Source: Verrucomicrobiales bacterium (GTDB taxonomy: Bacteria > Verrucomicrobiota > Verrucomicrobiia > Verrucomicrobiales > Verrucomicrobiaceae). From it: 55,939 bases of DNA. The DNA lies in NCBI GenBank assembly GCA_020439875.1, contig JAGRPD010000009.1, positions 1 through 55,939 on the forward strand, given 5' to 3'. The translations under genes and the position numbers were made by a program. Numbering within the stretch: the stretch's first letter is position 1; the number at the start of each line of letters is the position of its first letter. The notes beneath the pieces were generated by a model. It saw only the letters and a list, made by a program, of their open reading frames with translations. It made no database searches and was not told the origin of the DNA. Positions 9,594-41,155 of the stretch are shown here, in pieces.

Positions 9594-9763
9594 GGCGCGG
9601 GTCGTCGGTAGAGTCCTGTCCTGACCTGACCACCACGCACGAGAGCGCGACAGCAGCCACATCGTTACGGATCGCCATCATGCATGAATCCCGCAGCCTG
9701 CCAAGCCTTATATCGTCAAAAACATGACACAAACCCCCTCCTCCAATATTCGGCCTCGCCGGA

Positions 9764-12700
9764 CTACGGAGACCACGGCAGCGGCACCAGATGACTCGAT
9801 CCCTGGTGACTCTGCATGAAGCACGCGCGTCCCAGAGGCAGCAGGACATCCGTGGAGCGGTCCGTGAACGAGGCATCACCTTCGTCCACCCACATCGCCT
9901 CAGCCCCAGCGGCTTGATAGAAGAACAAACCGCGATATCCACTGGCCCCCTCAACCGCATCTCCCAACCAAAGCTTGATGCGATCCGCCAGAGACGCCTG
10001 ACTCGCCGCCACCATGTCATGCGCGGAATCCAGCGCCATCCTCTGCGGACTCTGATCCAGCGGATAGCCACCCCCACGCAACACCGCCGAACCCAGGCGC
10101 AAACGGAATGCATGCTCCCGCACCTCACCCGTCCAAACCAACGTGGCCGCCCTCTGCCGAAGATGCAGCAGCAGTCCCTCATCCGTCAGCAGCCTCACCG
10201 GCAACGACTCTCCCTCAGGCCCAATCCATTTCCCATCCGACACACGCAACCAGTAGCTGACAAAAGCCCTGGTCGTTTCATTGTAGAACAGTGCTCCGTC
10301 CGCTGCGGTCGAATCCGCACCCGCCGACAAGGCCGATGCAGGCAGCAAGCTGGCCAACGTCCAGTGAGGTCGAATCGCGATGGATGCACCCGCCAGCCCA
10401 TCCATTCCACCGTTGGTTGTGCCTCCAACGTCGTTCAAATCCACCTTCAGGGTGTCACCCGAACATTGAGCTTCATCAAGCTCCCAACGATGTCCCACCG
10501 CCGATCCGGATGTCACCTCGATATAACAGGGACCTAACGCCAGTGCATCCCGCAGCGCGTCACCTCCTCCATGGGAAAGAATCAACGAATCCGAAGCCGC
10601 CGAGAGCACCACACCTGAATAAAGACTCGGACGCAACAGAGGCATCGTCAGAGTGCTCTGGCCCACGCCAAAGCGCCGCCGCATCCATCCTTGAACCCGA
10701 GAGACCGCTGTCGCTTCCGCAAGGCCATCGCCATCCCGATCCAGTTGAACCCGAAGCCGAATGAACCCGTGGTCACTCGCAAAGACCGAGTCAATCCCCT
10801 CATATCGCCGCATCTCCGATCCATCCGCAGTCACACTCACCGTCGGCGACAAAGGCAACGCCGACCAACCCGCCGGAGAGTCCGCAAGATCCGCAAGCAT
10901 TTCAACCTGCCACCGAACATCCTGACGACCCGCCACAGGACGACGCAGCACAGCAGTCACCGATCCCGTTGCATCATCGCTCTCCAAGCTCAGCGCCGGT
11001 TGCGTCAAACCGCTGAGAGGATTGAGATCCAAGGCATACTCCAGCAAATTGGATAGCCCATCGTGGTCCGCATCATCATCAGGCAAAGTGTCATCTCCCA
11101 GATCATAACGTTGCAGCCACAAGGCATACGTCGCCGGAGCGGCCGGAGTAAGCGGGATGTTATTGAGCGCCACCACCGGCTGACCGCTCACCCACATCAC
11201 ACGCACATACCACGGATTGGCCACTGCCGAGGCATCTTCCATCACAGAGCCGTTCTCCGCGTTTAGGCCCGAGCCCACCCGCACAATTTCTCCATCACCA
11301 CTCGGGACAAAGGCCTCCGACAGCGGAGCACGGCTCGGATCCAAAACGTAACCCTCTGGAGGTGTGATCGTCAGCACGTACTCGCCATCTTCATTCGCAG
11401 AGAAGCAGTAGCTGCCAGACTGACCATCCAACAACAGCGTCACTTCTCCAGGACCCTCAATGGCCACGTGACCACCAGGAATGATGGCACCCGTCAAGGT
11501 GTCATAAAACCAACCTGTCGGAGTGAAACACTGCAAGAAGTCCACCCCAGAAACAGCCTGCCCGGTCATGGTCACACAGGTGCATTGGCAGTCTCCTCCA
11601 TCGCTATCAAAGGTGGCCTCCGCACCGGCGGCCAAGGTCTGCACCACGAGATAACTTCCCGGCTCCACCGCCTCAAACTCATAACTCCCATCGCTGGCCG
11701 TCGTGGTCGTCGCAATCGGATCGGCATCGGCTTGATCCATCATCCCGTCAGAATCCGCGTCCACAAAAAGCTCGATCATCATTCCCTCCAGAGGAGGATC
11801 GTTGGAGGCAGGATCGCCATCACCATTCACGTCATTGCTCACCTCTCCCAAAAGCGGTGCCGCAGCAGGAGGCGTCAGCACAAAACCCAGGTCAATGGTG
11901 AGATCGGCATTTGCATCATCGTCATCATCGGAATCCGCTGCAAATCCCGTTTCACTGCCGCCTGACGCGCTCGAGACAGGCTCCGAATCGTAGGCCAAAT
12001 CAAAGGTGATGGAATAAATCCCGGTCGTCGCGGGGTCGCTGGCGTCAAAACCATCTTCTCCGGCATCGTCATCGCTGCCGTCATCATTGCCAAAGCCCAA
12101 GGACGAACTTGCGCCTTCCAAGGGCGCACCAGTTTGGAACACGGAGGCCGGAACGTGAAGGAAGTACTGCCCCGCCGAATGGGTCGTCAGAGTGTAGGTC
12201 CCGTCAGCACCCGTCAACGTCTCCGCCCTCGGCGGATCGTTCACCGGATCATCACCCGTCGCAAACAAACGAACCAGCACTCCACTCACCCCGGAATCTC
12301 CCGCGCTCGGATCAAAGACACCATCGGCATCCAGGTCCAGGAACACCAGATTTCCCACGGAAAGCGGCCGAGGCGCAAAACCCAAATCCACGGTGAGATC
12401 CACATTCGAATCCTCCCCATCATCCGAGCTAGCATCCGTGCCGGTTTCGGTATCCGCCGCCGTGGGCATCGAACCCGCAGCCAGAGTGAACGATGCCGAA
12501 GTCACGCCATCCACGAGAGGATTCCCGCCATCCACACCATCTTCCCCGACATCATCATCTCCCAAGGTGCCCGGGGGGACAACACCACCGCCAGTCGATG
12601 ATACATACTGGTAAAGCGGTGCATAGAGATCGAACTGTGATGCTGGGATATGTATCACATAACTTCCAGAGCTGGTGCTGAAGGAATAGAGCCCATCCGC

Positions 12701-15700
12701 ATCTGTGTAGGTTTCCGTCACTGGAACACCCGGTGCGTTAGCGTCATGCAACTGAACCAAAACATTCGGCACCCCCGTTTCCGTACCAGCCTCAAAGATG
12801 CCGTTGTTGTTGGAATCAAAGAACACCAAATTTCCGACACCCACCGGCGAGGAAAATCCAAAGTCGATGGTGAGATCCACGCTGGCATCATTGGCGTCAT
12901 CCGACGTACCGAAGAGTCCACCTTCCGCAGCACCCGTGGGAGCACTGCCCGCCGCGAGATAGAAGATGGAAGACGTCACGCCAAACCATTCCGGTTGCGC
13001 CTGATCGACTCCATCTTCATTGACATCGTCATCGCCCACTCCGTTCCCCGTCAAATTCACTTTGCCCTCCAACACGGCATTGGGCGCAAAGTTCGCCATG
13101 GGCAGGTGCACTTGATAGGACCCCGGCGTGAGACCGCTGAACTCGTACACTCCATCACTGTTGGTCGAAGTCGTGGCCATCGGTGAGTCCCACCCGGGGA
13201 TCGAGTAGCCATCGTAAAGTTCGACGGTGACATTCGCCACGCCCTCTCCCGCATCGGCCACCCCATCACCGTCCGCATCAAGGAACACCAAATTCCCCAC
13301 CGCCACCGTTTGATGGAATCCAAAGTCCACGGTGAGATCAACGTTCGAATCCGCAAAAGCGTCCATCGCCGGTGCCTTTCCAAATTCGCTATCGAAATCG
13401 GTCGGCTCCGTTCCGAGCGCGAGATGAATCACATCGGAAGCAATTCCGCTCGAAGAAGGAACGGCCGCATCCACGCCATTCTCATCCAGTCCGTCGTCAC
13501 TGCCAGTATCTCCTCCCGATCCCGGCAAAGAAAACCAACCTGACAGCGGACCGCCTGCTTGGAAATTCACGGGAGGCAAGAAAACAAAATAATCTCCCTC
13601 GCCGAGCCCATAGATGAGGTAGCAGCCTGAGGAATCCGTGAGCACATGGGTGATGGGATTCCCCTGAGAGTTGACGCCAAAGGCGATGGGAGGATCCACC
13701 AACGGATCATCTCCGGAATGAAAGACCTGCACCATCACGTTCGCGATGCCTTCACCTGGATCATACACCCCATCCCCGTCCGCGTCACCATACACCAGGT
13801 TCCCAACACCCGTCTGGTTCGCCGCAGGTGCCACGAATCCCAGATCAATGGTCAAGTCATGATTGTCGTCGTCCACCGCATCCAGCGTGTTCGCCGAACC
13901 CGTCTCGATGCCTGAATCCACCGGCTCAGTGTCGGCGTTCAACGCAACCGTGAGCGTCGTGACTCCGTTTATCTCTGGATTGGTTTCCGGTTGAGCATTT
14001 TGTCCCACATCGTCATCCCCTGGAGTCGATTCCAAAGGCAGCGGCAGGGCTCCAAAGAGCGGTTGGCCCGTGCCAAACTCTTGGGGAGGAATGTGAACCT
14101 TGTAAGTTCCTGTTGGCAAGAAATTGAAGAAGAAGTGGCCTTGAGCATCTGTGAACTGGGTAAAAAGAGGCAAGCTGTTGGTCGGATCCTGCAATCCTCC
14201 ATACAATTCCACCCGCACTCCCTCGACACCTTCACCCGCATCGGCATGGCCATTTCCATTCTGATCAGTGAAGACCAGGTTCCCGATGCCGACCGGGCTT
14301 TGGAAACCAAAGTCGATGGTGAGATCCACACTGGCATCATTGGCATTATCCAGGGTACCGAAAAGGCCCGTCTCTCCCGTGTCATCCGTCGGCGCGATCC
14401 CCGGATACAAGGCCACCAAACCAGAGCTAACACCCGTAGTTGTTGGGTCTGCGGTATTGAGGCCATTTTCTCCCACGTCATCATCACCTTCCACGCCCTC
14501 CTGGATGCTCACCTTCTGATGCAGTGGCGCTCCCGATGCAAACATCGTTGCAGGGATATGAAAGAAGTAAGTGCCCGGAATGAGATTGCCAAAGAAGTAT
14601 CGACCCCCGCCCGTCGTGACTCGAGTTTCCAACGGCGAATCGACGCCTGGAACCTGACCAAAACTGTAGGCCTCCACAACGACTCCATCCACGCCTTCTC
14701 CTACATCGGCATGTCCGTTCTCGTTGAGATCCATGAAGACCAAATCTCCCCCTCCCACCGGACGATAGAGACCAAAGTCCACAGTGAGATCCACATTGGA
14801 ATCCGATGCATCATCAGAGCTGGCATCATATCCCGTCTCGTAGCTGCTCTGCGTGGGCGCGTTGCCGCTGGAAAGAGTAACGATCCGACTGCTGATGCCC
14901 GTCAGGTTGGGTTCGCTGGCATCGACCCCATCATCACCCACCGCCGCATCATCGTCACCCGCTCCCAGGCCGGGCAAACTTACTTTTCCTTGAAGCGATC
15001 CACTTGCAAACTCGGCGGCGGGCAGATGCAGGAAGTAGTCTCCCGCCCACAAGCCACCAAAGAAGAAGCCTCCACTAGCGTCAGTGACGCGGGTTGCCAA
15101 AGGCGGATCACTGCCAGGAATCGCCCCGGCGTGATACAATTCCACGGTCACACCATCTTCACCCTCACCCGCATCCGCCTTCTGATTGCCATTGGCATCG
15201 GTGTAAACGAGGTTTCCGATCCCCAACGTTCCGGGTTCGACAAACCCAAAATCCACCGTCATATCGCCATCCGCATCCGTCACGAAATCATCGAGATCTC
15301 CGCCGAGGTGATTTTCCGCGCCCGCAAGAGCGTCCCCCATTGGCTCGGTTCCGACCGAGAGTTGGATCATTGGGCTTACCACCTCCGTGAAGGGACCCCC
15401 AAGCTGCAGACCATTGTCGTCGCCATCTTGTCCATTGTCCGACGGATCGGTGACGGGCGAGCTGGAGCCATTGACGCCGAGAGGCATGCCTGACACGAAG
15501 TTAGATGCCGGGATCTTCAACTGGTAAGCCCCGGATTCCTGTCCCGAGAAATAGAAGTGACCATTGGCATCGGTGAAGGTCCAACCCAGCTGCAACTCGG
15601 CACCATTGCCAGGCAAGCCGTCGGCGTCTTTCCACAACTCCACGCGGACACCAGGGATGCCTGGCTCGCCTACGTCTTGAATGCCATCCGCATCCACATC

Positions 15701-18700
15701 CTGCCAGACCGTGCTTCCCAAGGCCGTGTGAGGCAGGCAGGGAATCGTTGCCGAGCCAAACATGAACTGTCTCACCCCAGGCCAAACCTCATTGTTCGGA
15801 CCCGGCGGTGTGGGAATCGGCAGCTCGATGAATTGCACCACGCCACTCTGGGTGACGCGAATCAGCGAACTGCTGAGGAAACTCCCACCTTGGATCGGCT
15901 TGCCCCAATCGTATCCCGCGATGTATAGATGTCCTGTCGTGGGATCCACCTCCAGATCTCCCGTCAGCACTTGACCGGAGCTCGCACCATCCAAATCAGC
16001 GACCAAGACAGGCGCACCAGGAATGCTGGGATCGGTTAGATCGATTTTGAAAACCTCTGCTTCACTGCGATTGTTACCGAACAGTGTGGATCCATGGATA
16101 TCAATCCCACTGACCAAGGCAATGCCACCTCCTCCCGGAACGAGCTGTACCAAGTCAGCATCATCAGCGATCACGTTGATCATCGACTTCGTCGTGGTGG
16201 ACCAACGCTGAATCTCACGCATGCCACTCTGATCCACCACCAAATAGAGATTGCCGTCTGGACCAAAATTCAAATCTTTGACTCCGTTCACCGTCGCCCA
16301 CACAGGCTCCACAGGCTGTCCGCTCTGCGCATGCAGCGGACCATAGAACCGAACAATCTTTCCTCCCACCGGATCATTGGCATAAATCATGCCCTCGGGA
16401 CCGAAGACAAAATCGTCCACCGCAGTCAATGCACCCGCCTGCAGAATCGGACCCAAATCGACACCCGCAGGCGAGACGCGGCGGATATTCCCCGAACCAA
16501 AATGAGCGACGTACCAATTTCCATCTGGCCCTAATTCAATGGAGTGCGGCACATCGCCTGAATCCCCATTGCCTTGGCTATGGCCGACTCCGAAGGGGTG
16601 CAAAAAGGGCCCGCAATAGCTACCAGACGCCTGATCGGCAATGTAAACGCCATCATCATAAGTCGCTGAAACAAACGCACGCACCGCGACAGGCTGGAGC
16701 CCGAAGTCAATGGTGCCTTCCAAAGATGTGCCTCCACCCGTGCCCGGCTCTCCTCCGGGAGTGAGAAGAACCACCGGACTGTAGATCGACCCCGCAGCAA
16801 GTTGATGGCCATTGTCATCGAAGTCCACCCCATCGTCGTTCATCGATGTGATCGAACTCGACAACGGATGAGAGGTCGGTGGCACCGGAATGCGCACGTA
16901 AACCAGTCCAGGCGGGTTATGCTCCGAGAGATAAGAGCCATCCGCCGCACTCGTCACCGAATCCAGCAGAACGTCATCGATCCCGCCGATGACGCCGTCC
17001 GAGCCCACGCTCCAGACTTCCAACGTCACATTGGCCACTCCGGGCTCACCCGCATCATCGAGCCCGTTGTCATTGACATCGGACCACACACGATTGCCAA
17101 GGCTCAGTCCCGCCGTCAGCGCCAGGTCCAAAGTGAGATCCGTATCCGCATCTCCGTCCTCCGTCACGGGCTCACCGCCGGGTGCCAGCGTGAAGACTGC
17201 GCTATAGACGGGATTGGACTTCCCGCCAGGCTGCGTTAGAGCGTTGTTATCATTGTCCACGCCGTTGTCCGCTGCAGCCACCGGATTTCCACCGAGCAAC
17301 GGATGCGAAGCGGGAGGAACGGCTTTCAAATAAAACACCCCGGCAGGCTGGTCTGCTAACAACCACGAGCCATCGGGCGCAGTTGTCGTTGCCGAGACCA
17401 AGCTGTCAGCATCGGCCCCCGACCCACCGATGGCAGCATCAGCGCCCGCGTTCCATAGCTCAACCGCCACCGAGCCAATGCCCGCCTCACCCGCATCTCG
17501 CACGCCATCGTTGTCGATGTCGTCCCACACCAGATTTCCCACATGCACGCCGCGGATCTGAAGACTGGTGGCCAGCGTCCCCGTGCAGCCGTATGAATCC
17601 GTGGTGCGAACCGTGAAATTGTAGGAGCCCACGGCGCTGGCCATGCCACTAATCTGCCCAGCAGCACTCAGACTCATGCCTGGCGGCAACGCGCCCGAGA
17701 TCAGCGTGTAGGTGTAAGGTGCCCCAAAGGTGCCACTGGAGCGAGTGGTGCTCAGCTGGTTGGAATAGGCGACGCCCAAGTAACCCATCGGTTGGGGATC
17801 AGGACTCAGCGTGAGGGTCGGGCAGGTGGGTGTCACCGTATAAGTGCGCTCACCAAAACAACCATTCGCGTCCGTGACCCGCACGGTGAAGGTCGCGCTG
17901 GCGGTCGAATTCGGCACTCCTGTAATGCGGCCCGTCGAGGTATTCAAAGCGGCCCAACTCGGCAGCGCGCCACTGGTAATGCTCCAGGTGTAGGGACTGG
18001 CCGAGGTCCCGGCACGAGACAACAAGCGATTGTAGCTGGTCCCCAAAACAGGCGTCGGCAACGCGGCCGGACCCACCGTGATCACGGGACAAATCAGCAG
18101 ACTGTAGTTTCGCGTCGCCGCGCAGCCATTGGCATCCTCGACCGCCACGTCCACAGGGAAGATCCCGGCCGCGCTCGGCGTGCCTTCCAGTTTCAAGGTC
18201 GCCCCATTCAGCGCCAGTCCACTCGGCAATCCCGAAGCAGCCCAATTCTGATACGGCACTGCACCTCCCGATGCCGAGAAGGCGGTTCCCTGAACATAAG
18301 CATCTCCCATTTTTCCGGAAGGCAACGCAGCAGGAAGCACGGTGATGACCGGACAGCCCACTCCGATCGTATAACTCTGCGCTCCAACACAGCCCACGGC
18401 ATCCGTGGCCTCAACGGTGAAGCTAACACTCGCACTCGCCGTCGCTGGCGTTCCTGAAAGTTGCCCCGTAGCCGCATCAATGCTCAACCAGGCAGGCGCA
18501 CCTGCCGCCAAGCTGTAGCTGTAGGGGGCCTGACCTGAAGCCGCCGTGGCCACAGTTCCTGGCAGACTCTCATAGGGCTGACCCACCTCGGCATTGGGCA
18601 TGGACGCGGGGAAGGTCAACACGGGACAGACGCGCCACGACCCATTCCAACTCCCGGCACAGCCAGGATAAGACACCGACTGAGCCGTCACGGTGAAAGG

Positions 18701-27700: not shown

Positions 27701-28033
27701 ATCGGAGCTATACGGCACCGGCCCATTGGTAATGGACATCCAGAGCGCTTCGGTATTGTACGTCGTCGTATCCAACGTGACACTCACAGACAAGGTCCCC
27801 GCCGCGACGTTCTCCGTCATGGTCACGGACTTCCACTCGCCCCCATCATTGCTCCCATTCACCCAGCTTGGAGGGCTCGACCAGCTGAAATTCCATACAC
27901 TCGGCGGAGCCTGGCCGCGCAAGGTTGCAGCTCCTGCCAAGCAGCCTACAAGAATCAGCCATACCGCAAACATGCGGCCGTGCATCCACCTCCATCGTGG
28001 TGCTCGTGTTGGGCTGTTATTTGCAGGCTGCAT
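9764..28033 (-). CDS. Giant secreted repeat protein (about 6089 aa): about 26 He_PIG-type Ig-like repeats, 13 SdrD-B-like repeats, 4 GEVED modules, a beta-propeller insert, and a unique C-terminal region
   Basis: Uninterrupted 18.3-kb ORF. The first ATG is at 28033 (MQPANN...[29 protein letters not shown] is signal-like), while the track start at 28060 is a TTG. Stop TAG at 9764-9766 verified. One GEVED motif location was checked at DNA level (GGTGAAGTGGAGGATTAT = reverse complement of 21197-21214). Layout in ORF-track aa numbering: Ig array 249-1758, SdrD-B 1759-2036 and 3503-3790, GEVED 2130-2292 and 2557-3053, propeller 3791-4105, SdrD-B array 4106-5500, unique C-terminal region 5501-6098. 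Confidence 0.9.
   Translation of the reverse strand: [6089 protein letters not shown]
9767..11560 (-). other. Non-repetitive C-terminal region of the 6089-aa protein (about 600 aa), carrying an acidic [21 protein letters not shown] motif
   Basis: aa 5501-6098 do not match the upstream repeat types. Contains a Cys cluster (DCQCTC), a thrombospondin-type-3/dockerin-like acidic motif, and a C-terminal segment of about 330 aa ending LVPLPWSP. Confidence 0.6.
11561..15745 (-). repeat. Array of 9 SdrD-B-like repeats of about 155 aa each (protein-level tandem repeat)
   Basis: Recurrent G(N/D)LV(F/Y)xDxNGNGxxDxGE(G)VxGVxVELY ... TDxxGxYxFxxLxPGxYxVHIP ... GDDDVGxDGVD ... NVDLT(V/I)DFGF. Counted in the translation at aa 4106-5500. 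Confidence 0.75.
15746..16690 (-). other. Beta-propeller-like insert (NHL/SBBP-like blades) inside the giant protein
   Basis: aa about 3791-4105. Blade-like motifs [79 protein letters not shown]. Confidence 0.55.
18902..20392 (-). repeat. Three consecutive GEVED-motif modules in the 6089-aa protein
   Basis: Modules end in [33 protein letters not shown]. Each starts with D(Y)GD(Y/W) and has an acidic GDD..G.DDEDGV cluster. A fourth module lies at 21185-21673 ([11 protein letters not shown]). Confidence 0.75.
22787..27316 (-). repeat. Array of 17 consecutive He_PIG / dystroglycan-cadherin-like Ig repeats of about 88 aa each
   Basis: Consensus CPxxS(I/L)[80 protein letters not shown](V/I)x. 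1510 aa / 17 = 88.8 aa per unit. Confidence 0.8.
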
Positions 28034-28073
28034 GAAGATACGTTTTCGATTCTTGATCAAGTGGGTTCCATTC

Positions 28074-34000: not shown

Positions 34001-37000
34001 CTCCTCCCGTGACGGCAACGGTGTAGGTACGAGATCCTCCACACAATTTCGAGTCCTTGGCCATGATGGTGAAGGAGCGGGTCTGCTCGGTCGTCGGCAC
34101 ACCCGACAAAGTCCCCGTGAACGGATCAAAGAACAACCCACTTGGGATACTGCCACTCGCCACACTGAACGTGTAGCTTCCCTGCCCACCACTGGCCGTA
34201 AAGGTCTGCGAGTAATATTGGCCCACCACCGCATTGGGAATGCTCAAAGGTGCCACCAAAATCGTGGGACAGGTTCCGATGGTGATCGTGTAGTCCCGGC
34301 TCGCCATGCACACCAGCCGATCCGTCACCGAGATGGTGAAAGCAAAAACTCCGTCTGTGCTAGGGACGCCCTGGATCACACCCGTCGCATTGTCCAGAGC
34401 GAGTCCCGGCGGAAGTGAGCCCGTCACCAATTGATAGAGGTAAGGAGCGGAGCCGCCTGTCGCTTGGACTTGAGCTTGATACACCGCGCCTTTGGTTCCA
34501 TCCGGCAGCGTGGCTGGCCCCACCGCCAAGCCACCGCAGGCAACGGTCAACGTCGTCGAGCCTGAACAGGTCTGGCCACCGTCTCCTGTCGTTGCCGTGA
34601 TCGTCGCGGTGCCGCCGACCGCCGGTGTGCCGGAGATCGCACCCGTCGCCGGATTGATCACCAATCCCTGGGGCAGGTTCGTCGCCGTCCAAGTGTAGAA
34701 TCCCGCAGGTGAAGCAGACGGTGTCTGATTGTAGGGCACACCGATTGCCCCAGGGGGCATGGGCTGCGGAGTAACTGTCACCGACGAACACCCGCCTGGG
34801 TTGATGGTGATCGCGCGTGTCGCCTGTCCCGTGCAAGCCGCAGCGTCTGTCAGTCCCACTGTAAAACTGTAGGTGCCACTCGTCGTTGGATTTCCAGCCA
34901 ACAAGCCGTTTGAACTCAACGACAAACCGGGAGGTAAGCTGCCACTGAGAAGCGTGAAGGTGTAGGGTGCCGTGCCGCCCGTGCCACTCAAGGTTTGGCT
35001 GTAGGCCGTGCTAACGGTGCCATTCGGCAACGAGGCCGGATTCATATTCAAAGCAGGACATCCCGACCCCGGGTTCAGCACGAAGCTGTGTGAGCCTTTG
35101 CATCCATTCGCATCCTCCGCCTGGATCACGAAACTCGTCGCCGCACCGGAATTGGTCGTGCCGCTGATCACTCCACCGGATGAAAGCGTCAATCCAGCAG
35201 GAAGACTGCCGCTCACCATAGAATAGATGTAGGGACTCTGCCCACCTGCAGCCGTCAACGTTTGATTGTAGGGGACACCCAGAGAAGGATTGGGCAGGGT
35301 CGTCGGTGAAATCGTAATGGACGGGCAAGACACAACCAACGGGATCGACACAAAGCACGTCGTACCACTGATCATCGTACTCGCCTGAATCGTGGCTGTG
35401 CCGAAGGTCTGGGGAGTGCCGCTCACCACCCCTGTGCTCGCCTGAATGGTGAGACCAGCCGGTAGGTTGGTGGCGGTCCAAGTGTAGGTTCCGGGGGGCG
35501 TGCAATTGAAATCCACCGAGTAAGCAGACCCCACCGTTGCATTAGGCGCAGGGTTTGGCGTGATCTGCATCGATGGACAACTGGCGGGAGTGATTATCAC
35601 AGCCACCGTGAATGTGCCCGTACATCCCGCCGCATCCGTCACTTCAATATCCGCGTACCACGTTCCCGCATTGTCGGGCGTACCATTGATCTCACCGGAC
35701 GGATCCAAAAACAGTCCCGACGGCAGCGACGATCCCCACTCACTGTAGAGATAGGGCGGTGTGCCGCCCGACGCTGCGAGTGTCATTTCGTACCACTGCC
35801 CCACCGTTCCCTGCGGCATCCCCCAAAAGTTTGGCTGCATGTCCAGCGGCGGGCAGCCATTGATGATGATTTGGCGTGTGGTGTTGGTATCACAGCCGTA
35901 GGCATTGGTCACCGTCACCGTGAAGCTGAAGGTCCCTGCCGCTGTGGGCGTTCCCGAAATATCTCCGTTGTTCGCGTCGAGGCTCAGCCCATCTGGCAGC
36001 GCACCACCCGTCACGCTGTAGGTCACCGATCCATATCCACTATTCACATAACCATTGACCGAATAAGGCGTACCCACCGATCCGGGTGGCATGTAACTGG
36101 GGAAATAGGTGATCGTTGGACAGTCGGGCGTCCAAACCTCCGACATGGTTCCGGTGCAGCCCATCGAATCCGTCGCCGTGATCGTGAATGCATAGGTGGC
36201 TCCATCCGTTGCGACTCCCGATATCTGACCCGTCGTTGAATTCAACGTGAGGCCATTGGGCAATTGACCCGAGGTCACCGCAAAGGTGTAGGGAGGCACG
36301 CCACCGGTCGGACTCAGAGTGCGATTGTAAGATTGACCAATGTGCGGATCCGGTGGAGCCGGAGCCAAAACGGTGATCACCGGGCAGCCCGGCGCATCGC
36401 ACAGCCCCATGTTGATGTCATTCAGTGACCCACCATTGACGATCTCCAGCGTGACCGTCTCTCCCGGGCTCGTCGTCGGCCCCGTCACCACATAACTCAT
36501 CGTTGCCGAGGTCGATCCGTAGGCCGCATAGTCCGTGAATTCAAATCCCGACGGGAGTGGCATGCTCACTGTGTACTGACCGTTGGCCAAACCATAAAAG
36601 TTGTAGTACCCGGTACCAGATGTCACGTCAGTGGCGATCACCGTTCCCCCTGAATCGTGGAGGCTGACGGTCACGCCTGACATTCCAGGCTCGGAGTTAG
36701 AACGAATGCCATCGCAATTCGAATCAATCCAAACCCGACCTCCAATCGAACCATCGGAGGACTCTTCCACCGGCAAGGTGTAGGTTCGATCATACTCGCA
36801 GGTGCCCGAGCTATTGGTCACTTGGAAATGAAGCGTGTAGGTCGTCAAGGGATAGTTGGGAGTACCCGAAATCTCGACCTGATCTCCCACTTGCGTCCAG
36901 GTCATGCCTGGCGGCAGGCTGCCTGAAATCAGATCCCAAGTCAGCGGCGGGTTTACACTGCTCACTGAGATGAATTCGTTGTACTGCTGGCCAGGATGCG

Positions 37001-37430
37001 CGGCAAACAAGGTCGTGAGAAACGGATACCAAGTGGCCGCTGGGCAGTTCAAAGCTGTGGTCGTGACGTAGTTCGACTCGAGCGTGTCAAAGCCGGGCAC
37101 GTAGGCGCAGCGCTGGATCTGCATCCCTACCTGAAAGATCGGCTGAAGTGTCACCCATGGCAGGTTAGGATCCAGATCATCGGCCACGTTCGGCACTGGA
37201 TCCCATCCACCGCCCGTCGAATACATCCAAATGTAATGCACCGGGTTTTGGGAAGACTGAGGCAGCGTGACGTTTTCGACGGATCCTGTGTTCGCGTTCC
37301 ACGAGATCGTCCCCGCATTCGTCACAGGGTTCGCCCACACCTGTGCCAGGCCTGCTCCCCACCACACCGCTGCCACCAGGCTGCAAAGCAGCCAGCGGCT
37401 CGCGCGGGGAATGGTGGAGGGGTGAGTCAT
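28074..37430 (-). CDS. Giant secreted repeat protein (about 3118 aa): about 18 He_PIG-type Ig repeats, 1 SdrD-B/Cna-B-like domain, 7 GEVED modules
   Basis: Track ORF 28074-37544 trimmed to MTHPSTIPRASRWLLCSLVAAVWWGAGLAQVWA (signal peptide, cat at 37428-37430). Stop TGA at 28074-28076 verified. Only 13 nt separate the start from the stop of the upstream 727-aa gene. The protein ends ...DDCCPSIGFTVIPEP. Confidence 0.9.
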   Translation of the reverse strand: MTHPSTIPRASRWLLCSLVAAVWWGAGLAQVWANPVTNAGTISWNANTGSVENVTLPQSSQNPVHYIWMYSTGGGWDPVPNVADDLDPNLPWVTLQPIFQVGMQIQRCAYVPGFDTLESNYVTTTALNCPAATWYPFLTTLFAAHPGQQYNEFISVSSVNPPLTWDLISGSLPPGMTWTQVGDQVEISGTPNYPLTTYTLHFQVTNSSGTCEYDRTYTLPVEESSDGSIGGRVWIDSNCDGIRSNSEPGMSGVTVSLHDSGGTVIATDVTSGTGYYNFYGLANGQYTVSMPLPSGFEFTDYAAYGSTSATMSYVVTGPTTSPGETVTLEIVNGGSLNDINMGLCDAPGCPVITVLAPAPPDPHIGQSYNRTLSPTGGVPPYTFAVTSGQLPNGLTLNSTTGQISGVATDGATYAFTITATDSMGCTGTMSEVWTPDCPTITYFPSYMPPGSVGTPYSVNGYVNSGYGSVTYSVTGGALPDGLSLDANNGDISGTPTAAGTFSFTVTVTNAYGCDTNTTRQIIINGCPPLDMQPNFWGMPQGTVGQWYEMTLAASGGTPPYLYSEWGSSLPSGLFLDPSGEINGTPDNAGTWYADIEVTDAAGCTGTFTVAVIITPASCPSMQITPNPAPNATVGSAYSVDFNCTPPGTYTWTATNLPAGLTIQASTGVVSGTPQTFGTATIQASTMISGTTCFVSIPLVVSCPSITISPTTLPNPSLGVPYNQTLTAAGGQSPYIYSMVSGSLPAGLTLSSGGVISGTTNSGAATSFVIQAEDANGCKGSHSFVLNPGSGCPALNMNPASLPNGTVSTAYSQTLSGTGGTAPYTFTLLSGSLPPGLSLSSNGLLAGNPTTSGTYSFTVGLTDAAACTGQATRAITINPGGCSSVTVTPQPMPPGAIGVPYNQTPSASPAGFYTWTATNLPQGLVINPATGAISGTPAVGGTATITATTGDGGQTCSGSTTLTVACGGLAVGPATLPDGTKGAVYQAQVQATGGSAPYLYQLVTGSLPPGLALDNATGVIQGVPSTDGVFAFTISVTDRLVCMASRDYTITIGTCPTILVAPLSIPNAVVGQYYSQTFTASGGQGSYTFSVASGSIPSGLFFDPFTGTLSGVPTTEQTRSFTIMAKDSKLCGGSRTYTVAVTGGGGCPAISLTPATLPSGSAGLSYSATVSASGGATPYTFSISTGTLPPGLTLNTSSGVISGTPTTSANYMFGVTARDANNCVAGQNYMISITCPSISLSPAALPDPQAGTPYSQTITASGGGSSYTYQVVSGVLPPGLTLNSSTGVLSGTPNGVGTYDFTIRATNPTTQCSGTRAYTLSLGCPVLALSPLPLPSMTVGQYYEVALSASGGEAPYYFVADQKTLPEGLTLDEKTGLLYGVPVKEGTDPLTIVVVDSNGCETAFELTLTFGACPAPIVLESGDVYVLQVPTGVTSVVWLLDGNPIPGATDTDYTVTTAGVYTWTGLTVKGLVVDSCCPIEFTPGSKGTDDWGDLPDKVVGTSNGDYQTLAADGGPRHTLTDKLTLGEKVDAEADGQPNDGATGDGSDEDGLDGVPSFVRGSAYSFPVQVVNGTGSTARLYGFADWNADGDFADASEAFPVQTVASNGGLASVTLSGTVPATAAIGRIGLRLRLSLQTGLTSIGASTSGEVEDYLVSVDCPVLAISPSSLPTGTVGSAYSQTLSVSGAQGAVVWSVVGGTLPAGLSLSSGGVISGSPTSAGSSSFTVQAVDATGCLGSKALSLTVNPSASQVDFGDYPAFSSASQVISTALRMGTNPTDAEANSPTTGLATADDAAGTDDEDLTMPDFVIGQVTALVVPVTVTPASLSGGTARLVGYVDWNGDGDGADANEMSNVVTVSSSGGKNVTFTVPASVAPGSRFLRLRVAEGSSTPAFSGASTGQGEVEDYEVNVKCPVLSLTAVPPEGRLATSYSGSVAVSGGGSLIFTYSVTGALPPGLSLDSATGLISGTPTAVGNYPLDVTAVSAGGHCEFQTSILLVIRPSLDFGDLPEIGGQVYGTTLSKNGARHTISPTSLVLGSAVDAEVDGQPSVTATGDGADEDGLSNLTSLVQGEPFSFSVAIEKTAGVAPTLYAFLDWNADGDFDDAGEVLATPVIAPASTSLIVPVSGTVPMSAAVGGTGLRLRLSTDGGLTALGEASDGEVEDYWVTIQAASGSFDYGDYLGDGTLTAWAAPTAGLLLGRQVDAEGSGLANAGATGDDLDGLDDEDGVISWGNMISGELLKVRVMVSTVGSPAAQNFLNAWVDWNRNGSFDDAGEQVLVDLDLDNTLEFSEVQFGVDVPAGMTTGPVAVRLRLNSGTAGQLPSGVALGNLGEVEDFLTEVINPDDTPMDHGDYSGFADAANGWSKLIFMGSGVDAEVGASDVNASRDDEDGVPDDEDGVYLPASITPGALASLRVVVTNKDVGPAYLNVWMDFDGDGTLSAGDQVVSNDEVLPGIENEARDYSVTVPDYTTSGLIGVRARLTQVASPGAVGAGGPGEVEDYILRVGAASYDYGDLADASAGTSLGNYRTRLADNGPRHALTPDLLLGKRVDGDVGTLQNADATADDADNVADEDGLVTALDLQAGSATEIMVLAGNLDATSAFLNVWIDYNRNGNFEEVGEQVVADWEVLPYSYEEHALPVWVPAAARTDGPVGVRFRLSRSKGLTSIGEASSGEVEDYMVSIQSGADYGDYSNFVAAASTVNTALRMGAQVDVEPNSSLANATAEGDDADGIDDEDGVTVPASIVPGQANSLTVNVTNATAGSAYLNAWIDFDQDGDLTTAEQIATDEMVNPGTSAANRVISFTAPLQVSSGAIGVRVRLTSVMSPGSTGLVGVGEVEDLLTTGTCPSIAIQPATIPNAEVGVPYTAQMSGTGSAGPFVYAVTSGALPTGLALTGGSGLVSGTPTSVGLANFRVTGTDPYGCAGFRDYTMRVCPVIALGNLGQAVVGQAYSGSVAASGGAGGYVYSLASGSLPSGLNLDAVSGAVTGVPTVLGSSSFEIEVVDAVGCAKIRGYTMTVGCGAIAVAPLTLPNGSVTTAYSVSLSAVNGSGPYFFAKTLGSLPPGVTLSPGGVLSGTPTTGGVYGFTVGVTDNQGCTGERSYTLTIDDCCPSIGFTVIPEP
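28899..32984 (-). repeat. GEVED-module region of the 3118-aa protein (7 modules, interrupted by 2 Ig repeats)
   Basis: Motifs SGEVEDYLVSV, QGEVEDYEVNV, DGEVEDYWVTI, LGEVEDFLTEV, PGEVEDYILRV, SGEVEDYMVSI, VGEVEDLLTTG at ORF aa 1521-2882. Confidence 0.75.
33201..36389 (-). repeat. Array of 12 He_PIG-type Ig repeats in the 3118-aa protein
   Basis: ORF aa 386-1448. Each unit starts with CP/CS/CG (CPVITVLAP, CPTITYFPS, CPPLDMQPN, CPSMQITPN, CPSITISPT, CPALNMNPA, CSSVTVTPQ, CGGLAVGPA, CPTILVAPL, CPAISLTPA, CPSISLSPA, CPVLALSPL). About 88.6 aa per unit. Confidence 0.78.
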
Positions 37431-37443
37431 CGCCACGTTCGAT

Positions 37444-39627
37444 TTATTTCGGAATGACCAACGTGTTTCCACAGGCCCCCAAGGGACCCGCCACCGACAC
37501 GAGGAGATCCTCGACTTCTCCTCGACCCACAGCTCCCGTCGCATTCGGAGACGCGGTGTTTGTCAATCGCACTCGCATGGCTGTGGCACCCGCCAGGGCA
37601 CCACTTGGCGTGGTGAACGAAAGCGTGTGCACCACATCCGCCTCGCCATCGGTCACCAAGTGATCCACCACGACGTGCTCGTTCGCGTCAGTGAGTTTGC
37701 CGTTCTGATCAAAGTCCACCCACACATTCACAAAGGCATTGCCTCCGCTGCCATTGCTCACCGTCACCGAGAAGGACCTCGAGACGCCCTGATTCAGCGT
37801 GCCACTCAGCGTCACTCCGTCTTCGTCATCCACGCCATCTGCATCATCCCCCGTCGCACTGGAATTCGTCACCGCAGACGGCTCAGTATCCACCGCCGCA
37901 CCAAGCAGCAGCTTCGAATCCACCACACTGCTCGCATTAGAAAAGCCCGAATAGTCTCCAAAATCGGTCACCGCTGGCCCGATCAACACCAGAGTATCTT
38001 CCACTTCCCCGTTCCCATCCTGACCATCAACACCCGGGGTGGACACACTGGTCAATCGCACCCTTACTGCCACGGATGCCTGCGGTGCCGTAGCGGGCGT
38101 GGTGAAATTGATCGTTCGATTGGCTGCCACCGAACCATTCGCCACCACCGTGTTGCTCGCCACCTGCTCACCCGCGTCGTTGACATCTCCATCACCGTTG
38201 AAATCAATCCACGCGTTCAGGAACGCACTGGATCCCGAGGTATTGGTTACATTTACCACGATCGATCCTGAGGCCCCTATGGCCAGACTCGCCGGGACGG
38301 TCACTCCGTCTTCATCGTCGGCTCCCGTCGTATCGTCCCCGGTAGCTGCCGCATTGGTTGTCTCTACAACGTCAATGTCGGTCGTGGCCCCGAGCTTGAG
38401 CGTGTTCACCACGGTGGAACTGGCACTGGGCAGCGAAGCATTGTCACCAAAATCAAGGGTCGGAGCGAGAACATTCACCAGCGTATCTTCCACCTCGCCC
38501 AAACCATCCACCCCGTCAGGCCCTGGACTACTCACACTGGTGAGCCGCACCCGCACCCCCACCATACCGGGAGAAGCCCCCACAGGCGGCATGAAGTTAA
38601 CCGTCCGATTCGAGGAGGAGGTGCCGTTGGCAACAATCGTATTGCTCGCCACCTGCTCACCCGCATCGGTTAGATTGCCATTCCCATAAAAATCAATCCA
38701 GGCATTCAGAAAGGCGGACGCTCCACTGGTGTTCGTCACATTGACCGTCATTGAAGCCGCAATGCCAGGTGTTAGATCTGCTGGCAGAGTCACCCCATCT
38801 TCGTCGTCAGTGCCATTGCTGTCGTCTCCAGTCGCCAGGCTGTTGGTGTTGGCCGAAGGCTCCGCATCGGTGCTGGCCCCGATCTTGAGGGAGTTCACTT
38901 TCCCTGAGCTTGCCAAAGGGAATGAAGCGTAATCACCAAAGTCGTGCGTGATGGGAATGTTGGGTATCGCATCCAAATCAAGAGCGACCGCCACGCCTGG
39001 ATCTCCGTCCACCCGATCCACAATCAAGGTAATCGATTCGACGTCATCAAACGTCACCAATCCGTTCCCATAGACCTCATCCGCCTCATAGTCCTGCCCG
39101 ATGAAACGGTCGCCACTCACCAATGGCCCCACTGGATCAACGCTATCCGTCAAATTGCAATCCTCCCCGCCTGCGGTGGCCAACGAAAAGCTCCCACCCT
39201 TGCTGCTGACTACCACATACTCCTGATCACCGGTGATCCCGATCGAACCAATCACCAACCGTCCGGAACTTGGATGGCTAAATGTCAGGGTCACCACCCC
39301 TTGGGTGACCCTCAAATCGCCATCGTAGTTGGGCACGCAGGTGAACTCATTGCCCGTCCCCTTGACCGAGTAAATATCAGGCGCATCATCGGGCATCACC
39401 ACAGGTTCGGTATCCACCTGGACGGTGCCACCCGTGCTGCCGATCGGCAAAATGGTGCCACTGACGAAGGGATCTCCCGGGTTTCCCCACACCACTTGAT
39501 CCGCCACCAGGTTTCCCGCTGCACTCAACACGCCGACAGCGACGAGTCCCCACGCCTGGCCTCGCCATCTCCGGCAAGCAGCCCCGAAAATGGCATTCCG
39601 CAGCAGTCCATTGGTCATCTCTCCCAT
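37444..39627 (-). CDS. Secreted/anchored protein (727 aa) with a unique N-terminal domain and three tandem GEVED modules
   Basis: N-terminal hydrophobic segment WGLVAVGVLSAAGNLVA. Modules at aa 228-385, 390-548 and 553-711 end in LGEVEDTLVNV, NGEVEDTLVLI, RGEVEDLLVSV. ATG at 39627 verified (cat at 39625-39627). A 3-nt gap to the upstream gene. Confidence 0.88.
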   Translation of the reverse strand: MGEMTNGLLRNAIFGAACRRWRGQAWGLVAVGVLSAAGNLVADQVVWGNPGDPFVSGTILPIGSTGGTVQVDTEPVVMPDDAPDIYSVKGTGNEFTCVPNYDGDLRVTQGVVTLTFSHPSSGRLVIGSIGITGDQEYVVVSSKGGSFSLATAGGEDCNLTDSVDPVGPLVSGDRFIGQDYEADEVYGNGLVTFDDVESITLIVDRVDGDPGVAVALDLDAIPNIPITHDFGDYASFPLASSGKVNSLKIGASTDAEPSANTNSLATGDDSNGTDDEDGVTLPADLTPGIAASMTVNVTNTSGASAFLNAWIDFYGNGNLTDAGEQVASNTIVANGTSSSNRTVNFMPPVGASPGMVGVRVRLTSVSSPGPDGVDGLGEVEDTLVNVLAPTLDFGDNASLPSASSTVVNTLKLGATTDIDVVETTNAAATGDDTTGADDEDGVTVPASLAIGASGSIVVNVTNTSGSSAFLNAWIDFNGDGDVNDAGEQVASNTVVANGSVAANRTINFTTPATAPQASVAVRVRLTSVSTPGVDGQDGNGEVEDTLVLIGPAVTDFGDYSGFSNASSVVDSKLLLGAAVDTEPSAVTNSSATGDDADGVDDEDGVTLSGTLNQGVSRSFSVTVSNGSGGNAFVNVWVDFDQNGKLTDANEHVVVDHLVTDGEADVVHTLSFTTPSGALAGATAMRVRLTNTASPNATGAVGRGEVEDLLVSVAGPLGACGNTLVIPK

Positions 39628-39630
39628 GGC

Positions 39631-40287
39631 CTAGCCCTCTCCTCCTCCCTGCCGAAGCGATGCCTCACTCACTGCGCCGCCTTGGGGCATGGCTCGATCC
39701 AAACGGGCCCCCAAATCGCGAATCGCTGTATCTCCCGATTTCTCCGGATAACGCGCCAAGTGCTGCTGCGCCTCTGTTTTCCACTCGCTCAGCGGCAAAT
39801 GCCCCGCACTCACCTCCCGCGCCCGCATCACCAGCCGACTCCGACTCGCCCTCAATCTGACCCCCGCCGGCACATCAGGGTCCTCTGCCATCTTGGCGAG
39901 TTCCTCCTTGATCTCCCGCTCGGGTCGTCCCGCTTTCCCATCGATACCTGGGAGGGCCGACAGCCGCAGACGCAGCAGCGCCACCTCCGCTCTCCGCTCG
40001 TCTTTGCCAAACCGACGTTCAAACTCGGTGGCCAGCCTTTGCAGCGTGTCCGCTTGGGTGATCGCCATCCGCCGCAGTTCAGTCGCATCGAGGCTGCCAT
40101 CGGTGCTGACCACGCTCAGCCGCAGGATCGCTGCATGCAGCTCGTCAGCCGTCCGCTCCACCACTGCCGTCCCCTTTTTCTGCGAAGCTTCCGAGCCACC
40201 TCTCTGCCCTCCCCACCACGCCCACGCGGCCGCCGCAGAGAGCACCACAGCGGTCAGAGTCAGTCGGCGTTGGATCGTGGATTTCAT
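39631..40287 (-). CDS. Hypothetical membrane-anchored, predominantly helical protein (218 aa)
   Basis: Track ORF 39631-40506 trimmed to MKSTIQRRLTLTAVVLSAAAAWAWW (cat at 40285-40287). One N-terminal TM/signal-anchor followed by a charged Arg/Glu/Leu-rich region. No recognisable family. Stop TAG at 39631-39633. Confidence 0.65.
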   Translation of the reverse strand: MKSTIQRRLTLTAVVLSAAAAWAWWGGQRGGSEASQKKGTAVVERTADELHAAILRLSVVSTDGSLDATELRRMAITQADTLQRLATEFERRFGKDERRAEVALLRLRLSALPGIDGKAGRPEREIKEELAKMAEDPDVPAGVRLRASRSRLVMRAREVSAGHLPLSEWKTEAQQHLARYPEKSGDTAIRDLGARLDRAMPQGGAVSEASLRQGGGEG

Positions 40288-40324
40288 GATCGGGATTTCC
40301 CAAAAAAGAAGACGCTTTTCGGAT

Positions 40325-41086
40325 TCACCCACGGGCGGCCGACAGTCCCCTCCTGCGCAGCAACGCTGCCAAGCCAAGCGTGAGACCGACGAGCAAGGCA
40401 GAGCCTGGCTCAGGCACGGGCACCGCGACGCTGTGGGTTTGCAGACTGAAGACCACCGGATCCAGCGTGTATCCCCCCGGCCCCTGCAGGTCATTGCCGC
40501 CGCCATAGATCACCACGTCGAGATCCTCCAGATACCACTCCAAGCTGCCCGCGTCCGCATCGGGCACCACCCAGGCATCGGCCAGGTTGTCTGCCGTGAT
40601 CCCATCCGTCAGCAACGCCCACTCCCGCGGTGCGTCCAAGCTCTTCGAATCGTAAACCCAGAGGTAGGCCTGCGCCCCTCCGGGAAAGGCATAGAGCGGA
40701 TCTGCATCGGGCGAGCTGGAATAGCCTCCCGCCTCAATCTGATAGTAACCCACAAAAAACTGCTCGGGCACATTCCACCCCTCTGGATCGCCGTCGTTCG
40801 GATCCTCCGGCGTCGGGTCGTAGGCACGATCCAGCGTCCGCCAGTTCGACTCCCAGAGATCCACGTTGCTCGCTGTGGGGGTAAAACCCGGGAGAAAGAT
40901 GCCCACCTCAAATGAAAACTGGGTGTCCAACACCCCGCCGCCACTATCGAACAACCGATCCTGATACTGACTGCTCCAAGTCACCCCTGCCGCCTGGCTC
41001 TGGGCCACACAGGCAACGGCGCAAAATAGCCCCCCGAGGAGCCAGCTCTTGCAGCGAGTTCGTTGACTGGAAATTTTGGAAATCAT
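40325..41086 (-). CDS. PEP-CTERM sorting domain-containing secreted protein (253 aa)
   Basis: Signal peptide WLLGGLFCAVACVAQSQA. C-terminus VPVPEPGSALLVGLTLGLAALLRRRG has the PEP motif, a hydrophobic helix and an Arg cluster, which together form the PEP-CTERM/exosortase signal. ATG verified (cat at 41084-41086). Confidence 0.88.
   Translation of the reverse strand: MISKISSQRTRCKSWLLGGLFCAVACVAQSQAAGVTWSSQYQDRLFDSGGGVLDTQFSFEVGIFLPGFTPTASNVDLWESNWRTLDRAYDPTPEDPNDGDPEGWNVPEQFFVGYYQIEAGGYSSSPDADPLYAFPGGAQAYLWVYDSKSLDAPREWALLTDGITADNLADAWVVPDADAGSLEWYLEDLDVVIYGGGNDLQGPGGYTLDPVVFSLQTHSVAVPVPEPGSALLVGLTLGLAALLRRRGLSAARG
40328..40423 (-). other. PEP-CTERM sorting signal (last 32 aa of the 253-aa protein)
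   Basis: VPVPEPGSALLVGLTLGLAALLRRRGLSAARG. Confidence 0.85.
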
Positions 41087-41155
41087 GTCAAATCAGAGGC
41101 GCTAGTCCGCACACTATAGGTTAAAAAATCGAAAAAAGAAGGATTAAACTCATAA

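Follow-up and report, generated by a model that had tools for sequence, protein, structure and literature searches.

How can a secreted protein of several thousand residues be held at the cell surface when the sorting signal of its locus lies on a small neighboring protein? This question is raised by a contig of a Verrucomicrobiales bacterium (JAGRPD010000009.1, assembly GCA_020439875.1), of which a stretch of 55,939 nt, hereafter the window, was analyzed. Five consecutive open reading frames (ORFs) of 253, 218, 727, 3118, and 6089 aa, designated g1 to g5, occupy positions 9764–41086 of the minus strand. The first encodes a small protein with a PEP-CTERM signal, and the last three encode giant repeat proteins. 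Comparison with related genomes demonstrated that the conserved core of the locus is a two-part module, composed of the protein family of g1, termed G1fam, and the C-terminal domain of g5, termed G5C, whose genes are linked. The module is widespread and well defined, and from gene linkage alone we infer a candidate mechanism for the anchoring of the giants.

Two linked families, G1fam and G5C

The g1 gene (40325–41086, minus strand) encodes a 253-aa G1fam protein with a signal peptide, a tryptophan-rich beta-sandwich of ~190 aa, and a PEP-CTERM signal. The tripartite signal (40325–40420, minus strand; residues 223–253) is composed of VPEP, a hydrophobic helix, and RRRG, and is readable at the C-terminus as VPEP, GSALLVGLTLGLAALL, and RRRG. 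Residues 223–246 passed the cut-off of NCBIfam model TIGR02595 (20.1 bits; cut-off, 16 bits) and fell just short of that of Pfam model PF07589 (19.3 bits; cut-off, 20.7 bits). In an alignment of 51 homologues (alignment A1), residues P225, E226, and P227 were invariant or nearly so. At the N-terminus, inspection and a hydropathy scan identified a hydrophobic segment followed by SQA|AG. No PEP-CTERM signal was found at the C-terminus of g3, g4, or g5, in agreement with an earlier model-made interpretation of the window (the sequence-only reading), which had assigned the signal to g1 only.

A protein database search retrieved 54 homologues of g1 with 35–52% identity, and those with a named source came from Verrucomicrobiaceae, Prosthecobacter, or Akkermansiaceae. 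These proteins form G1fam, a family of ~240-aa PEP-CTERM proteins. Seven tryptophans were invariant or nearly so in alignment A1, and W78, W82, W104, W143, and W156 were strictly invariant. The AlphaFold2 model of g1, built from 51 sequences, had a predicted local distance difference test score (pLDDT) of 89.1 and a predicted template modeling score (pTM) of 0.78; in it, a beta-sandwich of ~190 residues stands between the signal helix and the PEP-CTERM helix at the C-terminus. No known fold could be assigned to this model, as the best Foldseek match had an E value of 0.056 with a template modeling score below 0.26 against the PDB, and an E value of 0.044 against BFVD. Profile searches of PDB sequences with alignments A1 and A5 were also empty. 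G1fam is a new protein family, for which no Pfam or NCBIfam family model, solved structure, or mention in the searched literature was found.

An acidic loop with the pattern TPxDPNDGDPE (approximately residues 91–102 of g1) is present in most members of alignment A1 and cleanly deleted in a minority; a possible role for this insertion is the binding of a metal or ligand. Second, longer proteins with a G1fam domain were encoded after the first G1fam gene in locus L063 (22147–23043; 298 aa) and locus L057 (10297–11565; 422 aa), and that of L063 ends without a PEP-CTERM tail.

The G5C domain (9767–11056, minus strand) covers approximately residues 5660–6089 of g5, that is, ~430 aa, with the motif D-x-D-G-L-S-N-L-L-E-Y-A-L at its start and PWSP at the last residue. 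This domain, the proposed docking partner of g1, was absent from the sequence-only reading. G5C had no Pfam family. C-terminal fragments of g5 scored 20.7 and 22.9 bits on the NCBIfam model TIGR02597, and five of the eight G5C sequences tested, including g5, showed weak matches of 21.7–34.7 bits to the first half of this model; as all of these are below its 50-bit cut-off, any relationship would be remote at best. Homology between G5C and G1fam was examined with hhalign and rejected (probability, 0.2%).

G5C relatives were collected by an exhaustive hidden Markov model (HMM) search of 1.84 billion representative proteins, which gave 1,658 matches, 428 of them at E ≤ 1e-30; these 428 representatives correspond to at least 428 clusters at 50% identity. 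An earlier word-indexed search, swamped by repeat words, had given one match, and a metagenome pattern scan had given one irrelevant locus. In nearly all of the best 150 of the 1,658 matches, G5C ended at the last residue of the protein, and the proteins were 450–8,000 aa long. The 12 giants that were fetched all had GEVED, He_PIG, or SdrD_B repeats together with a terminal G5C. Their public names are generic, such as “putative Ig domain-containing protein,” “SdrD B-like domain-containing protein,” or “uncharacterized repeat protein.” A C-terminal placement of this kind is usual for anchoring or sorting domains. As with G1fam, no NCBIfam or Pfam family model, solved structure, or mention in the searched literature was found, and G5C is a new C-terminal domain.

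To determine the genomic context of G1fam, one genome per GTDB species was scanned with the G1fam alignment as the query. The scan identified 50 loci, all in Verrucomicrobiota, namely, in Prosthecobacter, Brevifollis, Haloferula, and metagenome-assembled genomes (MAGs) labeled Verrucomicrobiaceae, Akkermansiaceae, or Akkermansia. In 40 of the 50 loci, a giant ORF with abundant GEVED, He_PIG, and SdrD_B domains came after the G1fam gene. The gap between the two genes was ~9 nt in the commonest arrangement and 7–33 nt in most loci; start and stop codons overlapped in four loci (gap, −4 nt), and the gap was 300–1,000 nt in five loci with an intervening ORF or spacer. Four further loci had the reverse order, with a giant ending in G5C preceding the G1fam gene. 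Overall, G1fam adjoined a giant or a G5C gene in 44 of the 48 assessable loci. The association of the giants with a small PEP-CTERM protein, already surmised in the sequence-only reading, is thus real and conserved across dozens of Verrucomicrobiota genomes, and it is undescribed in the libraries and papers searched.

The number of giant genes ranged from one to three per related locus, with the window included. In the neighborhoods of five g1 homologues, a giant GEVED/He_PIG/SdrD_B gene directly followed the G1fam gene with no equivalent of g2, and the giants were single proteins of 4445, 6310, 6785, or 7504 aa or a pair of 1605 and 8480 aa. Since the giants that follow the PEP-CTERM gene in relatives are usually single (4,400–8,500 aa), the split into three genes and the rising sizes are specific to the lineage of the window. 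The escalation of product size along the operon, pointed out previously, was accordingly seen in the window and does not hold as a general feature.

The G5C domain terminated the giants wherever a C-terminus was visible in these loci (L016 and L053), and two giants, P0131 and P0163, whose N-termini are 77–81% identical to those of giants following G1fam, both end in G5C. A gene ending in G5C lay immediately upstream of a G1fam gene in nine loci. Three of them encode a protein composed only of a signal peptide and G5C (534–552 aa; L048, 6189–8497; L050, 347–2706; L055, 6308–8577), followed by its own G1fam paralogue and then by a second G1fam gene with a giant. The paralogues located after G5C genes formed a separate clade in the G1fam tree, and their G5C partners lack the usual terminal P-W-x-P.

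The linkage was also examined from the side of G5C, with five giants found through G5C alone, independently of G1fam. Four of the five adjoined a G1fam gene. In L063 (Luteolibacter flavescens), L064 (a Verrucomicrobiaceae MAG), and L065, the G1fam PEP-CTERM gene was 23–82 nt downstream of the giant, and in L066 it was 94 nt upstream of a 6384-aa giant ending in G5C, which is the arrangement of the window from end to end. The L063 giant has neither GEVED nor He_PIG domains and still has its G1fam partner. Because of this giant and the G5C-only proteins of L048, L050, and L055, the link is considered to be with G5C and not with the types of repeats.

G1fam and G5C-type genes occurred at approximately 1:1 per locus, with exactly one of each in the window. 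In a mirror-tree analysis, the pairwise distances of G5C and the adjacent G1fam correlated with r = 0.84 (Mantel p = 2e-4, n = 11), and the value was 0.51 when a non-adjacent G1fam paralogue was substituted. In the five two-copy loci, the correlation was 0.95 for adjacent vs. 0.32 for non-adjacent paralogues. Together with the separate clade described above, these results fit co-evolving pairs, although neighboring genes that are inherited together would produce a comparable signal.

Proposed anchoring mechanism and its alternatives

In the mechanism that we propose, g3, g4, and g5, which have no sorting signal of their own, would be exported via Sec signal peptides. Their build is that of fibrillar adhesins: GEVED modules are combined with extended stalks of disulfide-bracketed He_PIG and SdrD_B domains. 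Verrucomicrobiota are known to use exosortases, and an exosortase encoded elsewhere in the genome would cleave the PEP-CTERM signal of g1 and fix g1 at the surface. The ectodomain of g1 would then bind the G5C end of g5, and the fibre would be held at its C-terminus, so that the GEVED end, at the N-terminus, would face away from the cell. GEVED and stalk domains have been described as the grammar of fibrillar adhesins, classically with a C-terminal anchor (PMC10952558), and the net effect here would be a “split” version of the C-terminal anchor of Gram-positive fibrillar adhesins. Previous work indicated that all PEP-CTERM species possess an exosortase and that the cognate enzyme sorting a PEP-CTERM protein of Verrucomicrobium spinosum is an exosortase (PMC3237569).

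An anchoring module is proposed because it is the small neighbor that carries the sorting signal and because this neighbor co-occurs and co-varies with G5C, the domain at the end of the giant. Exosortase processing, the surface location, and the binding of G1fam to G5C are presumed steps of this scheme. We estimate a probability of about 0.5 for this scheme as a whole, from the sorting of G1fam by an exosortase to its docking of G5C and the tethering of the fibre at the surface, with the gene linkage directly observed and the docking deduced. The proteins g3 and g4 may be co-assembled or released matrix components.

Several points weigh against this mechanism. Four G1fam genes have no nearby giant (L015, L023, L024, and L060), and no G1fam gene was found up to 4 kb away in either direction from the G5C-terminated giant P0064 (6474 aa; L067). 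Co-inheritance or joint duplication can make adjacent genes co-vary even if their proteins never touch. The variable gene order, with G1fam before or after the giant, fits a partnership and is silent on which of the two acts first. A structure prediction for G5C from a two-sequence alignment reached a pLDDT of only 41.6, and no exosortase gene is present among the flanking ORFs of the window. The mechanism is also silent on whether and how g3 and g4, which lack G5C, stay on the cell, and it leaves the crossing of the outer membrane by giant Sec substrates unexplained.

The same linkage could arise if G1fam were an export or assembly accessory that acts only briefly, in the periplasm or at the outer membrane, to chaperone or pilot the G5C end, and that the giant needs for its secretion or folding, in the manner of SprF for SprB in Flavobacterium. 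A dedicated accessory would fit the tight and conserved linkage, the 1:1 numbers, and the co-variation equally well, and the overlapping start and stop codons in some loci (gap, −4 nt) suggest coupled synthesis. However, the PEP-CTERM signal is nearly invariant in G1fam and marks surface-bound proteins, not periplasmic chaperones, and the g1 model is a compact beta-sandwich rather than a beta-barrel or a tetratricopeptide repeat (TPR)-type chaperone; we therefore regard an accessory role as unlikely. Somewhat more doubtful still is the explanation that the two are independent surface components under common regulation, in which G1fam, like the floc-associated PepA proteins, would be a small lectin-like PEP-CTERM matrix protein with exopolysaccharide as its ligand, the giants would stay on the cell or be released in some other way, and their genes would be neighbors through a common aggregation or attachment program. 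A tryptophan-rich fold with a conserved acidic loop is common in carbohydrate-binding modules, G1fam has weak NCBIfam matches to floc_PepA (E = 0.003), and PEP-CTERM proteins are required for floc formation in other bacteria (PMC9850573). Nevertheless, the PepA matches are far under the cut-off (17 vs. 80 bits) and run to the C-terminal signal, and co-regulation predicts neither a linkage specific to G5C, G5C-only proteins included, nor the 1:1 numbers and the paralogue-specific co-variation (0.95 vs. 0.32).

G5C might also be an anchor or translocator itself, embedded in the outer membrane or autotransporter-like, with an unrelated or regulatory role for G1fam. It is strictly C-terminal, beta-rich, and ~430 aa long, and in position and size it resembles the translocator domains of type V systems. 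Two counter-arguments, both weak, are that g3–g5 have no match to Pfam Autotransporter or another outer-membrane barrel family and that G5C ends in P-W-x-P, not in a terminal aromatic residue; in addition, its last 80 residues contain no strongly hydrophobic stretch. We consider such a role for G5C improbable. Least credible, and very improbable, is the five-part assembly logic put forward in the sequence-only reading, a machine in which the exosortase substrate, g2 as a membrane accessory, and three giants of growing size would all be obligatory and assembled in order. The five genes are indeed tightly packed on one strand, but g2 is an orphan, related loci lack it and encode one or two giants, and L012 and L017 carry an unrelated multi-pass membrane ORF at the g2 position.

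Beyond the window, the anchoring mechanism could be extended to a general “split sorting signal” system of Verrucomicrobiota, in which hundreds of giant Sec-exported adhesins would end in the docking domain G5C and each would be tethered by its own small exosortase-processed G1fam receptor, with recognition specific to each paralogue pair. At its boldest, this reading would have the exosortase join G1fam covalently to G5C, and the giant would then be the long-sought acceptor of exosortase transpeptidation. We put this extension forward tentatively, as a possibility with the balance somewhat against it.

The locus in the window and its ~60 relatives define two new families that are genetically coupled almost 1:1, an exosortase-signal carrier and a giant-adhesin cap. 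They touch on two largely open questions, namely, the function of exosortase substrates after cleavage and the surface retention of adhesins of several thousand residues in diderms outside Proteobacteria and Bacteroidota. The pair offers a testable hypothesis for adhesin anchoring in culturable Verrucomicrobiota (Prosthecobacter and Luteolibacter) and defined partners for binding and structural work. As both families can be defined by HMMs, the annotation of hundreds of giants now called “hypothetical” or “putative Ig domain” proteins could also be improved.

Other genes and sequence features of the window

The three giants draw on one set of repeat domains. The g3 gene (37444–39627, minus strand) encodes a secreted protein of 727 aa that combines a unique domain at the N-terminus (approximately residues 45–225) with three GEVED domains. 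The 3118-aa secreted protein of g4 (28074–37430, minus strand; the longest ORF begins at 37544) has 18 He_PIG, one SdrD_B, and seven GEVED domains, and g3 and g4 both lack G5C and a sorting signal. The g5 gene (9764–28033, minus strand) encodes a 6089-aa secreted protein, or 6098 aa if started from a TTG at 28060, with 26 He_PIG, four to five GEVED, and ~15 SdrD_B domains before the terminal G5C. The unique N-terminal domains of g3, g4, and g5 had no match in Pfam, and a search for homology among them or with g1 gave nothing significant. Short tails at the ends of g3 (37444–37480, ...NTLVIPK*) and g4 (28074–28120, ...FTVIPEP*) are alike, and the very last residues of g4 form a PEP-like motif that no helix follows.

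In HMM searches, He_PIG (PF05345; gathering cut-off, 24 bits) matched g4 with 594 bits (E = 6e-183) and the halves of g5 with 758 bits (4e-234; N-terminal half) and 167 bits (1e-49). GEVED (PF20009; cut-off, 24.4 bits) matched g3 with 111.7 bits (3e-32), g4 with 292.6 bits (1e-88), and g5 with 141.1 bits (2e-41) and 42 bits, and SdrD_B (PF17210; cut-off, 29.7 bits) matched g4 with 71.9 bits (6e-20) and g5 with 95.5 bits (3e-27) and 366.6 bits (2e-111). Domain mapping with HMMs derived from repeats within the window placed 44 He_PIG repeats of 88–89 aa each, 14 GEVED, and ~16 SdrD_B. Two cysteine columns were 100% conserved across all 44 He_PIG repeats, and the consensus of the GEVED repeat includes the GEVED motif. 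The GEVED, Ig-like, and SdrD-B repeats named in the sequence-only reading were therefore confirmed with scores above the gathering thresholds, as was the description of the ~88-aa Ig-like repeats as cysteine-bracketed.

The five ORFs fill 56% of the window, and the gaps between them are 37, 3, 13, and 40 nt, the last being 13 nt with the TTG start of g5; these figures use the start codons directly before the hydrophobic N-termini. An AT-rich, promoter-like tract lies upstream of g1 (41090–41235, minus strand), with 62–76% A+T compared to 32–40% farther upstream, and within it a −35/−10-like sequence (TTGTCT-17-TATAGT, 41184–41156) was recognized purely by its pattern. A hydropathy scan showed a hydrophobic segment at the N-terminus of each of the five proteins (Kyte–Doolittle 19-residue maxima, 1.3–1.9). 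The ORF sizes and gaps, the AT-rich tract, and the N-terminal signal or anchor sequences given in the sequence-only reading were all reproduced, and its description of a dedicated, tightly packed surface-adhesin or fibre locus is supported.

Terminator-like hairpins showed no enrichment over shuffled sequence (14 vs. 11.1 expected; 11 vs. 16.8), and the scan found no terminator-like site at any junction between g1 and g5, where internal terminators would have counted against the operon according to the sequence-only reading. From this layout, g1–g5 are presumably co-transcribed as one transcription unit. A sigma-54 promoter, as reported for some PEP-CTERM genes, was rejected, since a loose motif scan found no candidate close to g1 and its sole candidate (TGGGAGAAAGCTCGC) lies ~340 nt upstream of the g1 start, outside the AT-rich tract. 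The ORFs are considered to be real genes because reading frames as long as 3,000 or 6,000 codons cannot arise by chance and because the Pfam scores are decisive. DNA-level tandem repeats or assembly collapse were also examined, and Tandem Repeats Finder detected no repeat at a score of 100 or above. The repeats are old, with pairwise protein identities of 21–63%, and given this divergence and the lack of a detectable DNA-level tandem repeat, assembly artefacts are of no concern.

The 218-aa product of g2 (39631–40287, minus strand) is an orphan specific to this lineage, in which a hydrophobic anchor at the N-terminus precedes a charged region. The length is counted from the ATG directly before the hydrophobic segment, and the longest ORF begins at 40506; its GC content at third codon positions (0.70) is compatible with a coding sequence. 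No Pfam or NCBIfam family was found for g2, the sole match among 5.8 billion protein clusters was the cluster containing g2 itself, and tblastn over 61 related loci found nothing. These results rule out g2 as a conserved accessory protein, the role of membrane accessory that it had been given previously. It also showed no similarity to a transmembrane-anchored protein upstream of a Luteolibacter giant. Of the arrangement that had been suggested for conservation (253-aa protein, 218-aa protein, and GEVED protein), the PEP-CTERM protein and the giant are kept and g2 is not. Two loci have a multi-pass membrane ORF of 254 or 267 aa, unrelated to g2, between the G1fam gene and the giant (L012, 10738–11502; L017, 10716–11519); the two ORFs are 83% identical and occupy the position of g2 in the window. 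On the basis of these comparisons, g2 appears to be a lineage-specific insertion outside the conserved module and not required by the conserved system.

The flanking ORFs of the window had no match to exosortase, sortase, or type I, V, or IX secretion system (T1SS, T5SS, T9SS) families, in line with the sequence-only reading. Exopolysaccharide (EPS) export genes are located at 49911–55571 and encode a Wza-like protein, a Wzc-like tyrosine autokinase, a BBP2_2 outer-membrane barrel, an unknown 216-aa ORF, and a divergent extracytoplasmic function (ECF) sigma factor, with the export set at 50622–55571. The XrtA/PEP-CTERM EPS models for the export protein, tyrosine kinase, and chain-length determinant (TIGR03027, TIGR03018, and TIGR03007) gave 73.7 vs. 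180 bits, 121.4 vs. 230.65, and 54.7 vs. 278.85, respectively, all under the cut-offs, and the generic tyrosine autokinase model TIGR01007 was passed (177 vs. 108 bits). The EPS locus that had been noted nearby does contain export genes; because the XrtA/PEP-CTERM-specific equivalog models fail, it gives no specific support.

A gene for a 128-aa DUF4282 membrane protein (41452–41838, minus strand; 70.9 bits) is located ~365 nt upstream of g1, between g1 and a divergent DUF7133/cytochrome-c gene, and it has no counterpart in five gene-called G1fam neighborhoods. On the other side, an HNH endonuclease gene (8985–9662, minus strand; 225 aa) begins 101 nt downstream of the g5 stop, a place taken by a G1fam gene in several relatives. 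The flanks at 336–8966 and 42020–47481 encode a sulfatase, an M60-like (enhancin) peptidase, an FGE-sulfatase-like protein, and a 1550-aa FG-GAP/DUF7133/cytochrome-c protein. These genes are a typical glycan-degrading set of the Planctomycetes–Verrucomicrobia–Chlamydiae (PVC) group and fit an origin in Verrucomicrobiota. TsaD is a further flanking product.

Comparison with known systems

PEP-CTERM/exosortase protein sorting, reportedly described by Haft and colleagues in 2006, shares with the present system the tripartite C-terminal signal (VPEP, hydrophobic helix, and arginine cluster) and the N-terminal signal peptide of g1. However, this sorting usually serves many unrelated cargos, each with its own signal, whereas here the signal is on a small dedicated protein and the adjoining giants have none; neither an exosortase nor the XrtA-type EPS markers turned up in the window. 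No paper in the searched literature contained both PEP-CTERM and GEVED, and none mentioned TIGR02597, a “paralog” model of NCBIfam without functional annotation that shares with G5C the weak matches to its first half and differs in that all G5C scores are below the cut-off. The floc PEP-CTERM protein PepA of Zoogloea and Aquincola is also small, secreted, and implicated in cell aggregation; unlike for G1fam, no giant partner has been described for it.

The Gram-positive fibrillar adhesins, such as CshA with GEVED and SdrD with B repeats, have in common with the giants a signal peptide, GEVED, stalks of Ig-like and SdrD_B domains, and a C-terminal end module. In contrast, the host here is a diderm, there is neither LPXTG nor sortase, and the end module is the 430-aa G5C. 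No LPXTG tail was found at any C-terminus of g1–g5, and the full-length models of the MSCRAMMs SdrC and SdrD (NF000535 and NF012181) gave 40–44 bits vs. cut-offs of 1700–2500. Among diderm secretion systems, a type V autotransporter was not indicated, with no PF03797 match in g3, g4, g5, and eight other G5C sequences. Nor did the giants resemble type I RTX or LapA-like adhesins, since the three have N-terminal signal-like segments and no RTX family match, and no ATP-binding cassette (ABC) or membrane fusion protein (MFP) genes are in the window.

SprF is needed for SprB in Flavobacterium, and this pair of the T9SS of Bacteroidota is similar in that a giant repeat adhesin (~6,500 aa) is encoded beside a small dedicated partner needed to reach the surface. 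It differs in its T9SS C-terminal domain and PorP-like barrel, neither of which is present here, and the proteins are unrelated. The logic proposed for G1fam and G5C is that of cohesin–dockerin anchoring in cellulosomes, where a small wall-anchored scaffoldin retains a large, unanchored scaffoldin through the C-terminal module of the latter. Here, a small, covalently sorted protein would likewise capture the C-terminal module of a secreted giant, although there is no relationship in sequence or fold and the binding of G1fam to G5C is presumed. Overall, the parts of the present system are of known kinds, namely, PEP-CTERM sorting and the GEVED, He_PIG, and SdrD_B domains, and what is new is that one protein carries the sorting signal and another forms the fibre, the two being specifically paired in an exosortase-linked surface adhesin system.

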